13,134 nt of DNA from the IMG/VR virus record IMGVR_UViG_2681813271_000010; one strand, 5' to 3'. The position numbers and the translations under genes are program-made. A model generated the notes under the pieces. That model ran no database searches. It saw only the letters and a program-made list of their open reading frames with translations, and had not been told where the DNA came from. Positions within the stretch are counted from its first letter, which is position 1. Every line of letters starts with the position of its first letter. Shown here piece after piece: positions 11,142 through 11,561 of this stretch. Source of the stretch: a virus (lineage: Duplodnaviria; Heunggongvirae; Uroviricota; Caudoviricetes).

Positions 11142-11160
11142 GTAACGCTGGCAGCGTTAC
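11142..11160. promoter_or_regulatory. palindrome GTAACGCT-GGC-AGCGTTAC (copy 1 of 3)
   Basis: Perfect 8-bp inverted arms around a 3-bp centre, inside the replisome organizer coding region. Confidence 0.5.
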
Positions 11161-11187
11161 CTTTTCGTTTCAGTTCGCGTATTTTTG

Positions 11188-11529
11188 TTACTCGCTCGTT
11201 TGTAACCGCCCGTTTTTTTTAGAGCTTTTTCCGTTATGACGTTCAAAGTTAGGTAGAGAAAGCCCACCGTCATTTTCGACCAGCCATCCAACCTGAATTA
11301 ACGCATCAGCAAAACCAGACATAAAAGTGATGCGATCTATTGCACTTTTTGTAACGCCGCGAGCGTTACAATCTGCATTACCGTCTATCATTTGTTGATC
11401 CGCCCATGCCCAGAAGCGAATAACCTTCCCTAATGCGGCATCTGGATCAATATTCAGAATCTCAGCAAGCCTGAATATTTCCGGCTTATCCGGCGTAATA
11501 ACCTCGAGCTTTATCCAGTTTGAAGCCAT
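11188..11529 (-). CDS. N-terminal part of phage replisome organizer (DUF1376-like); ends at a stop just after an A8 run
   Basis: ATG at 11529-11527 with AAGGTG upstream. MASNWIKLEVITPDKPEIFRLAEILNIDPDAALGKVIRFWAWADQQ... fits the W-KL...LA...G..IRFWxWA pattern of replisome-organizer N-termini. The stop at 11190-11188 follows an A8 run on the coding strand (T8 at 11213-11220). Confidence 0.6.
   Translation of the reverse strand: MASNWIKLEVITPDKPEIFRLAEILNIDPDAALGKVIRFWAWADQQMIDGNADCNARGVTKSAIDRITFMSGFADALIQVGWLVENDGGLSLPNFERHNGKSSKKNGRLQTSE
11351..11369. promoter_or_regulatory. palindrome GTAACGC-CGCGA-GCGTTAC (copy 2 of 3)
   Basis: 7-bp inverted arms with a 5-bp centre, inside the N-terminal replisome organizer ORF. 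Confidence 0.5.
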
Positions 11530-11542
11530 TTGTTTTCACCTT

Positions 11543-11561
11543 GTAACGCTCGCAGCGTTAC
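11543..11561. promoter_or_regulatory. palindrome GTAACGCT-CGC-AGCGTTAC (copy 3 of 3)
   Basis: Perfect 8-bp arms with a 3-bp centre, 14-32 nt upstream of the replisome organizer start codon. Confidence 0.5.

Follow-up and report, generated by a model that had tools for sequence, protein, structure and literature searches.

Palindromes in the ydaU-like initiator gene of a Rac-like prophage as probable initiator-binding sites of a lambdoid-type replication origin

What is the function of three near-identical palindromes located in and immediately before the replication initiator gene of a prophage? This question is raised by the IMG/VR virus record IMGVR_UViG_2681813271_000010, a 13,134-nucleotide (nt) stretch of DNA (the window, numbered from its first letter) that carries a ydaU-like initiator gene on the minus strand at 10731–11529. 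Inspection of the sequence alone (the original prediction) had described three palindromes with spacers of 3 or 5 nt, placed about 200 base pairs (bp) apart, one of them just before the start codon, together with an extra half-site near 11118–11125. It proposed that they are initiator-binding or autoregulatory sites, or binding sites for the adjacent winged helix-turn-helix (wHTH) protein, dispersed in an arrangement unlike the λ origin, and it named a genome-wide motif count and conservation in related prophages as checks. Exact matching to GTAACGC-N5-GCGTTAC revealed exactly three copies in the 13.1-kb window, at 11142–11160, 11351–11369 and 11543–11561, and no further copy was found there even at 2 mismatches. 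Dinucleotide-preserving shuffles gave a chance expectation of 0.03 matches, and three matches were reached in 0 of 200 shuffles. The start-to-start distances of 209 and 192 bp bear out the predicted spacing; the variable spacer was a small error, as all three copies have spacers of 5 nt.

The three sites occupy different parts of the initiator locus. Palindrome A (11543–11561; GTAACGC-TCGCA-GCGTTAC) is located in the ydaT–ydaU intergenic region, where it abuts the Shine–Dalgarno sequence and ends 13 nt before the ydaU ATG (11529), as predicted for the site just before the start codon. Palindrome B (11351–11369; GTAACGC-CGCGA-GCGTTAC), referred to below as cluster I, lies in the region coding for the N-terminal domain (N-domain), at codons ~54–60, and encodes a low-confidence loop of the predicted winged-helix structure. 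Palindrome C (11142–11160; GTAACGC-TGGCA-GCGTTAC), the centre of cluster II, lies at codons ~123–129 in the region coding for the linker between the N- and C-terminal domains. In two of the three copies the dyad widens to TGTAACGC...GCGTTACA. The extra half-site is real: it lies at 11119–11125, reads GTAACGC on the plus strand and GCGTTAC on the coding strand, is located 23 bp past the right arm of C and abuts a homopurine tract. The window has four more GTAACGC half-sites, at 2819, 4331, 8602 and 8779, which form no dyad and were treated as background; two of these strays stem from a GCGTTACGC motif present in each copy of a 145-nt direct repeat (8572–8716 and 8749–8893, 94% identical, 177-bp spacing). 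In two whole phage records the palindrome is confined to the initiator gene, with three copies in vB_EcoS-666R9 (38.7 kb) and two in TL-2011b (44.8 kb).

To follow the sites through evolution, we collected N-domain homologues from species genomes, metagenomes and viral contigs, obtaining 249 loci that fall into 65 clusters below 85% amino-acid identity. Their hosts and sources include Shigella, Mixta, Erwinia, Rahnella, Pectobacterium, Stieleria (Planctomycetota) and many environmental phages. Virtually all 65 non-redundant homologues carry site B at +148 to +159 and site C at +346 to +400, counted from the ATG, and at both intragenic palindromes the arms are retained while the spacers are free to vary. 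Allowing at most one mismatch, we counted 111 palindromes in 22.7 kb of initiator gene segment and 3 in 166.5 kb of flanking DNA across the 65 loci, a density in the gene segment ~270-fold that of the flanks. Site A has a narrower distribution, being present only in the E. coli/Shigella and Mixta/Erwinia clades and absent from Rahnella and Pectobacterium; in Mixta and Erwinia it is kept though the intergenic DNA around it cannot be aligned.

Sites B and C are both in frame and encode N-A-x-x-V-T. In a codon alignment of the 65 clusters, the wobble bases of site B are nevertheless fixed (GGT in 65/65, AAC in 64/64 and GTT in 61/62), as are those of site C (AAC in 62/62 and GTT in 55/56), compared with a third-base entropy of ~0.9–1.0 bit for two-fold and 1.7–1.9 bits for four-fold codons at equally conserved residues elsewhere. 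The GCG-TTA codons of the 'ALP' motif, which form the extra half-site, are likewise fixed at the DNA level (GCG in 50/52 and TTA in 62/62). The 55 unique E. coli-type sequences show no change in the arms, while their spacer bases vary, all five of them at site A. Comparison with homologous loci, where arms are fixed down to their wobble bases and spacers drift, thus answers the conservation check in favour of the prediction and indicates that the palindromes are under selection at the level of DNA rather than of protein.

Closer analysis of the arms suggests that they are recognized as sequence rather than as a stem. Both arms keep the core TAACG without change (64–65 of 65). At arm positions 1 and 7, one arm is altered and the other does not compensate, as at position 7 of site C in 38 of 64 cases. 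In most relatives, single half-sites in helical register surround both intragenic palindromes. CGTTA occurs 11 and 33 bp past site B (43/65 each); TAACG precedes site C by 12 bp (41/64) and 24 bp (16/64); and CGTTA follows site C at 11 bp (45/64) or 23 bp (10/64), the latter being the E. coli type represented by 11119–11125. The median is eight core half-sites per locus, and cluster II comprises 4–5 half-sites at 11–12-bp spacing in most relatives. The distance between clusters I and II ranges over 195–249 bp in relatives, in in-frame multiples. The picture of dispersed single palindromes was therefore incomplete: most relatives also carry half-site arrays phased at 11–12 bp around each site, and the distal array adjoins a conserved homopurine tract, which the original prediction had not linked to the sites.

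The sites change together with the initiator. Where the C-terminal domain alone is shared (L086, L088 and L093), the locus contains no palindromes, and homologues ~40% identical in cultured phages keep the two-cluster layout with different dyads: GTCCGC-N7-GCGGAC in ε15, phiPSA1 and RPZH6, where the flanking half-sites have the same new sequence, and GTAGACG-N6-CGTCTAC in Ralstonia phage Raharianne, again with flanking half-sites of matching sequence. GTCACGC-N5-GCGTGAC is a further dyad in the same layout among distant homologues. In ε15 (L255), the gene for p23, a 'replication initiation protein', bears GTCCGC-N7-GCGGAC at 2066–2084 and 2345–2363, together with flanking GCGGAC half-sites and a (GAGAAG)4 tract. 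The ε15 record annotates integration host factor and repressor sites nearby and nothing at the p23 dyads.

Scanning viral contigs by the tract alone (CCAGAGAAGAGAAGAGAAGAGAAGA), independently of any palindrome, returned at least 120 contigs and 49 classifiable loci. These fall into six classes, GTCCGC (28), GTAACG (10), GTCACG (8), GTAGAC, TGACGT and TGTCCC, and within each tract-anchored locus both copies have the same arms, lie 184–348 bp apart and place the proximal copy 0–34 nt from the tract. Proteins of the GTCCGC class form a clade of their own, at least 57% identical to one another and at most 50% to those of other classes. One locus of the GTAACG clade (L173) has undergone such a switch: GTAAC is replaced by GTGAC at 6 of 7 half-sites in both clusters, which forces an N to D change in the protein on one arm and uses a silent GTT to GTC change on the other. 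Nothing but the N-domain accompanies the sites at every locus, and this comparison indicates that the sites are co-inherited and co-vary with it.

The element adjoining cluster II is also conserved. In the window it is a 39-nt homopurine tract, (GAAGAG)×6.5, at 11079–11117 (minus strand, the coding strand being the purine strand), three hexamers (18 nt) longer than in close relatives. Right after cluster II, the 65 homologues have a tract with a median length of 24 nt, whereas purine runs elsewhere in these loci reach 11 nt at most, and in every palindrome class the tract follows the promoter-distal site. Its usual sequence is AGAGAAGAGAAGAGAAGAGAAGA, with (GAGGAA)n in the E. coli clade, and its codons are fixed at the DNA level (AAG in 58/58, AGA in 52/52 and 54/54) while the encoded peptide differs by clade, REEKRREE in most and EEEEEE in the E. 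coli clade. Around site C, an A-rich, strand-asymmetric stretch of lower GC content extends over 11126–11250 on the minus strand and includes weak outward-facing half-sites, GTTAC at 11187–11191 and GTAAC at 11202–11206. This stretch has a GC content of 0.38–0.46 relative to ~0.6 in the flanks and an AT skew of −0.4 to −0.7 on the plus strand; the A-rich, strand-asymmetric zone of ~200 bp that encloses the tract has a GC content of 0.38–0.48. The tract is the candidate unwinding or helicase-loading element of the proposed origin.

The protein that accompanies the sites is a predicted replication initiator. Its N-domain is modelled as a winged helix, with a helix-turn-helix and a β-hairpin wing in the predicted structure; this domain ends at residue ~100 and the C-terminal domain starts at residue ~144, so that site C, the extra half-site and the tract all lie between them. 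The N-domain gave no Pfam match at E ≤ 1 in nine family members, Phage_rep_O included, no NCBIfam model, and nothing significant in a PDB sequence search with an N-domain profile. In PHROGs the initiator belongs to phrog_2509/9474, with a weaker match to the 'O-like' phrog_678 over residues 77–236 only. Searching with phmmer nevertheless found 5,954 (E ≤ 1e-3) and 3,375 (E ≤ 1e-10) representatives of 50%-identity clusters, currently annotated as 'replication initiation protein', 'primosomal protein I' or 'hypothetical'. Across this family the N-domain is fused to several C-terminal domains (DnaT-like PF17948 and others). The downstream gene varies by locus, encoding a DnaB-type helicase, a λ-P-like protein, a DnaC/IstB-like loader or a Toprim protein, and the upstream genes are unrelated: ε15 has a methyltransferase gene there, phiPSA1 a repressor gene, and other loci encode hypothetical proteins.

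Because the sites co-occur and change with the N-domain, are under DNA-level selection and lie in a replication module, we conclude that they are probably the binding sites of the YdaU-like initiator itself and would form, together with the homopurine tract, the origin of the prophage. The comparison thus lends strong support to the initiator-binding proposal. Such an origin would be a functional counterpart of oriλ inside gene O, built differently, and its design is best explained as a hitherto uncharacterized variant of the lambdoid origin within an initiator gene. From the comparative data we infer binding, dimer stoichiometry, looping, tract unwinding and origin activity as follows. Dimers of the winged-helix N-domain would read the invariant core TAACG-N7-CGTTA. 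Cluster II, consisting of palindrome C and the phased half-site at 11119–11125, would nucleate an oligomer beside the (GAAGAG)n tract, which would be opened next to it, and the initiator C-terminal domain would bring in the helicase via YdaV, a DnaC-like protein. Cluster I, ~200 bp upstream, would be a second site that must be bound, probably connected with cluster II through DNA looping or wrapping. Palindrome A, an addition of the enterobacterial clade, may extend this complex or let the initiator throttle its own expression. A more specific version, in which initiator-bridged arrays form a looped bipartite origin and the homopurine tract, transcribed as purine-rich RNA, is opened by a stable R-loop or by triplex formation, coupled to transcription and unlike oriλ, appears doubtful.

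Several observations weigh against the assignment of these sites to an initiator-bound origin. No helical phasing is evident between clusters I and II, given the scatter of their distances, and the tract has ~50% GC, being GA-rich and not AT-rich. The window does not contain the four or more tandem iterons within ~100 bp that are typical of oriλ, although site C, the extra half-site and the tract do occupy the oriλ-type linker position. Protein identities within the GTAACG class overlap with those of the GTCACG class, and identity alone therefore does not separate all classes. A scan for σ70-like promoters over 10900–12400 gave no match, including near site A. Finally, the searchable literature yielded no binding or origin experiment on any member of the family, and no description of these sites was found in the searchable literature on oriJ, YdaU, DUF1376 or ε15, or by sequence.

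Alternatively, the initiator could bind these sites only as autoregulatory operators or roadblocks, with the true origin located elsewhere or confined to the tract region. Site A is directly next to the ydaU ribosome-binding site, every site is located within or ahead of the initiator–loader operon, and the Rep proteins of iteron plasmids (RepA, RepE and π) provide a precedent, as they autorepress via inverted half-iterons. We nevertheless regard this as unlikely: no promoter-like element was found near any site, site A is missing from most of the family while B and C are universal, cluster II always lies beside the conserved tract at the domain linker, the classical position of an origin, and no other repeated elements were seen in the whole phage genome records. 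Because a promoter-like site was not found, an operator role lacks support even at site A, the only site that may be autoregulatory. The palindromes might instead work by forming hairpins or cruciforms in mRNA or single-stranded DNA, in translational control, as priming or primosome signals or as an antisense terminator. They do fold as 8–9-bp hairpins (−7.6 to −9.4 kcal/mol, z −3.9 to −5.8), site C with its T-run scores as terminator-like on the plus strand, and class switches preserve dyad symmetry. Within a class, though, the stem is frozen, the one-arm changes at site C position 7 break pairs, and hairpins are disfavoured because they cannot explain the flanking phased half-sites, which have no pairing partner. 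No Rfam match to the palindromes was obtained at E ≤ 1, and site C was rejected as a terminator, since this single terminator match falls below the shuffle expectation of 1.8; overall we consider a structural role distinctly improbable.

Very little probability attaches to the sites belonging to another factor, such as YdaT, the DUF977 wHTH protein, the repressor or Cro, or a host protein. The gene order invites this idea, with ydaT directly upstream, the DUF977 gene two genes downstream and a YdaT-box-like dyad ~35 nt from site A. However, the footprinted YdaT box, ATGATT-N6-AATCAA (PMC11879457), is unrelated, and the YdaT operator dyad (A/T)TGATT-N6-AATCAA shares no half-site with the palindromes, which excludes YdaT as the binder. 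Binding by the repressor or Cro is unlikely because vB_EcoS-666R9, which matches the window across ydaV–ydaU–ydaT (query 1–1442 of 1801) and not across the cro and repressor genes, keeps all three sites. Moreover, distant loci from Enterobacteria to Planctomycetota retain the sites next to unrelated neighbours, and six specificity classes are hard to reconcile with a single host factor. The proposal of binding by an adjacent wHTH protein is thus not supported: the distant palindrome-bearing loci have neither YdaT nor DUF977 next to the sites. It is similarly hardly probable that the tract and site C are kept merely as a homology patch for modular recombination of replication modules. The junction between K-12-type and window-type ydaU does fall right after the tract, and one tract sequence is common to initiators with different N- and C-terminal domains; yet a patch would explain neither the class-specific second palindrome 190–300 bp upstream nor the phased half-sites and strict arm conservation in coding DNA, and it is in any case compatible with an origin. 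The remaining possibility, chance or a by-product of the conserved peptide N-A-x-x-V-T, could draw on both intragenic palindromes encoding that peptide in the same frame, but it is refuted by the shuffles, by the fixed wobble bases, by the non-coding site A and by the unrelated peptides that other classes encode at the same places, leaving it a negligible probability.

The locus itself is that of a Rac-like E. coli prophage: by megablast, the match to strain FDAARGOS_944 is 98.6% identical and that to 'Escherichia phage Rac' from strain 442/2 is 89.7% identical. The minus strand carries, in order, a Cro/DicC-like gene (12239–12012), ydaT (cII-like, phrog_163), the ydaU-like initiator gene (phrog_2509 'replication initiation protein', E 1.2e-89), ydaV (9978–10724), which encodes the DnaC-like helicase loader (IstB_IS21, NF009043 at 8e-154, phrog_50), and then the DUF977 gene; a DicA/CI-like repressor gene lies on the plus strand at 12316–12723. 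Compared with intact relatives, ydaT of the window has a 1-nt deletion (~11985), and ydaU has 2 additional nt in the T-run at 11213–11220, the 18-nt hexamer expansion and a 10-nt deletion at ~11064. Because of these indels, both genes are regarded as pseudogenes in the window. The winged-helix domain of ydaU (11218–11529, the first ~104 codons) is still in frame and the C-terminal domain, which faces the helicase loader, is out of frame. As both genes are frameshifted, the prophage is probably replication-defective despite its intact origin sites, although homopolymer sequencing error may be an alternative source of the frameshifts. With the cis sites intact and ydaU frameshifted, the origin could therefore fire only with initiator supplied in trans.

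Other repeated elements were noted in the same region. Two dyads resemble the YdaT box: CTGATT-TTCATG-AATCAC (12018–12035) lies over the ydaT start, in the position of the K-12 YdaT box, and ACGATT-AATTTC-AATCAA (11593–11610) covers the ydaT stop and precedes palindrome A by ~35 nt; the second dyad could mark a YdaT-controlled element beside the origin. A tandem duplication of 391 bp (9129–9909; two copies, 81% match) covers the DUF977 gene together with the stretch that precedes it. Positions 12778–12821, downstream of the repressor gene, contain 1.9 copies of the 23-nt tandem repeat GTTTTTCTACACAAAAAACTTAG, and CCTAAG/CTTAGG-type motifs recur there and in the repressor–cro intergenic region (12240–12315); these motifs may serve the DicA/DicC-like switch as operators. 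At 12931–12956, a small open reading frame region contains 26 consecutive N (masked or unresolved bases).

If confirmed, these assignments would provide an origin and a recognition sequence for the initiator family of Rac-like prophages, ε15, SPN1S, TL-2011b and Xanthomonas CP2-type phages (family labels P0082–P0223 and L094–L338), a family that also occurs in thousands of environmental phages and whose DNA-binding domain has no Pfam model. They would supply a rule for finding such origins, namely two class-specific dyads plus a (GAGAAG)n tract, and at least six natural specificity classes in which initiator and site have co-evolved under an added coding constraint. They would also predict which co-resident prophages cross-activate or compete for each other's origins, and the window would exemplify intact sites accompanied by a broken initiator gene. 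A non-AT homopurine element beside the sites makes origin opening a directly testable question; should opening proceed through an R-loop or triplex, the palindrome classes would amount to a specificity code from which replication incompatibility between co-resident prophages could be read.

Among the closest known systems, oriλ offers a functional parallel. In oriλ, 18–19-bp dyad iterons in the middle of gene O each bind an O dimer beside an unwinding region (PMC7466680, PMC6022878). The window resembles the origins of λ, 933W and P27 in that its sites are 18–19-bp dyads within the initiator gene, at the junction of the N- and C-terminal domains and beside a candidate opening element, and in that N-domain and sites form an exchangeable specificity module (PMC7466680, PMC6022878). 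The C-terminal domain of O recruits the helicase loader, and that of the YdaU-like initiator would do the same with the DnaC-like loader YdaV. The original prediction of an arrangement unlike the λ origin was nonetheless borne out. λ has four tandem full iterons in ~100 bp (six in Stx phages), whereas here two clusters 190–300 bp apart, with a third in enterics, have one full dyad each, and the additional elements are single half-sites phased at 11–12 bp. The oriλ tract is AT-rich and ~39 bp long, in contrast to the GA-homopurine hexamer repeat, and λ O is unrelated in sequence to the N-domain of the window.

K-12 Rac, whose replication module comprises ydaU/ydaV with the genetic origin oriJ, shares the position in a Rac-type early-right operon, the same YdaV, a YdaU C-terminal domain 85% identical over 119 amino acids, the only part of YdaU that aligns, and the presence of repeats in the initiator linker. 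It differs in having a DUF1376 N-domain, for which the window protein has no match, and no GTAACGC dyads. Instead, its ydaU linker (L254, 2972–3063) contains 4–5 direct repeats of AAGCAGATGTTCAA, mostly 33 bp apart, which are candidate iterons of the classical oriJ and of which no description was found in the searchable literature. Because both N-domain and repeats differ, the window appears to carry an origin-specificity module unlike that of K-12 Rac. Bipartite or looped origins with separated clusters of initiator sites include P4 ori/crr, R6K, the iteron sets flanking rep in P1 and F, and SPP1 oriL inside gene 38. These systems share with the window at least two separated site clusters bound by one initiator, one cluster lying in or beside its gene. 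Their clusters, however, consist of direct repeats and lie kilobases apart or flank the gene, whereas in window-type loci both clusters are dyad-centred and contained within ~300 bp of the coding DNA of a single gene.

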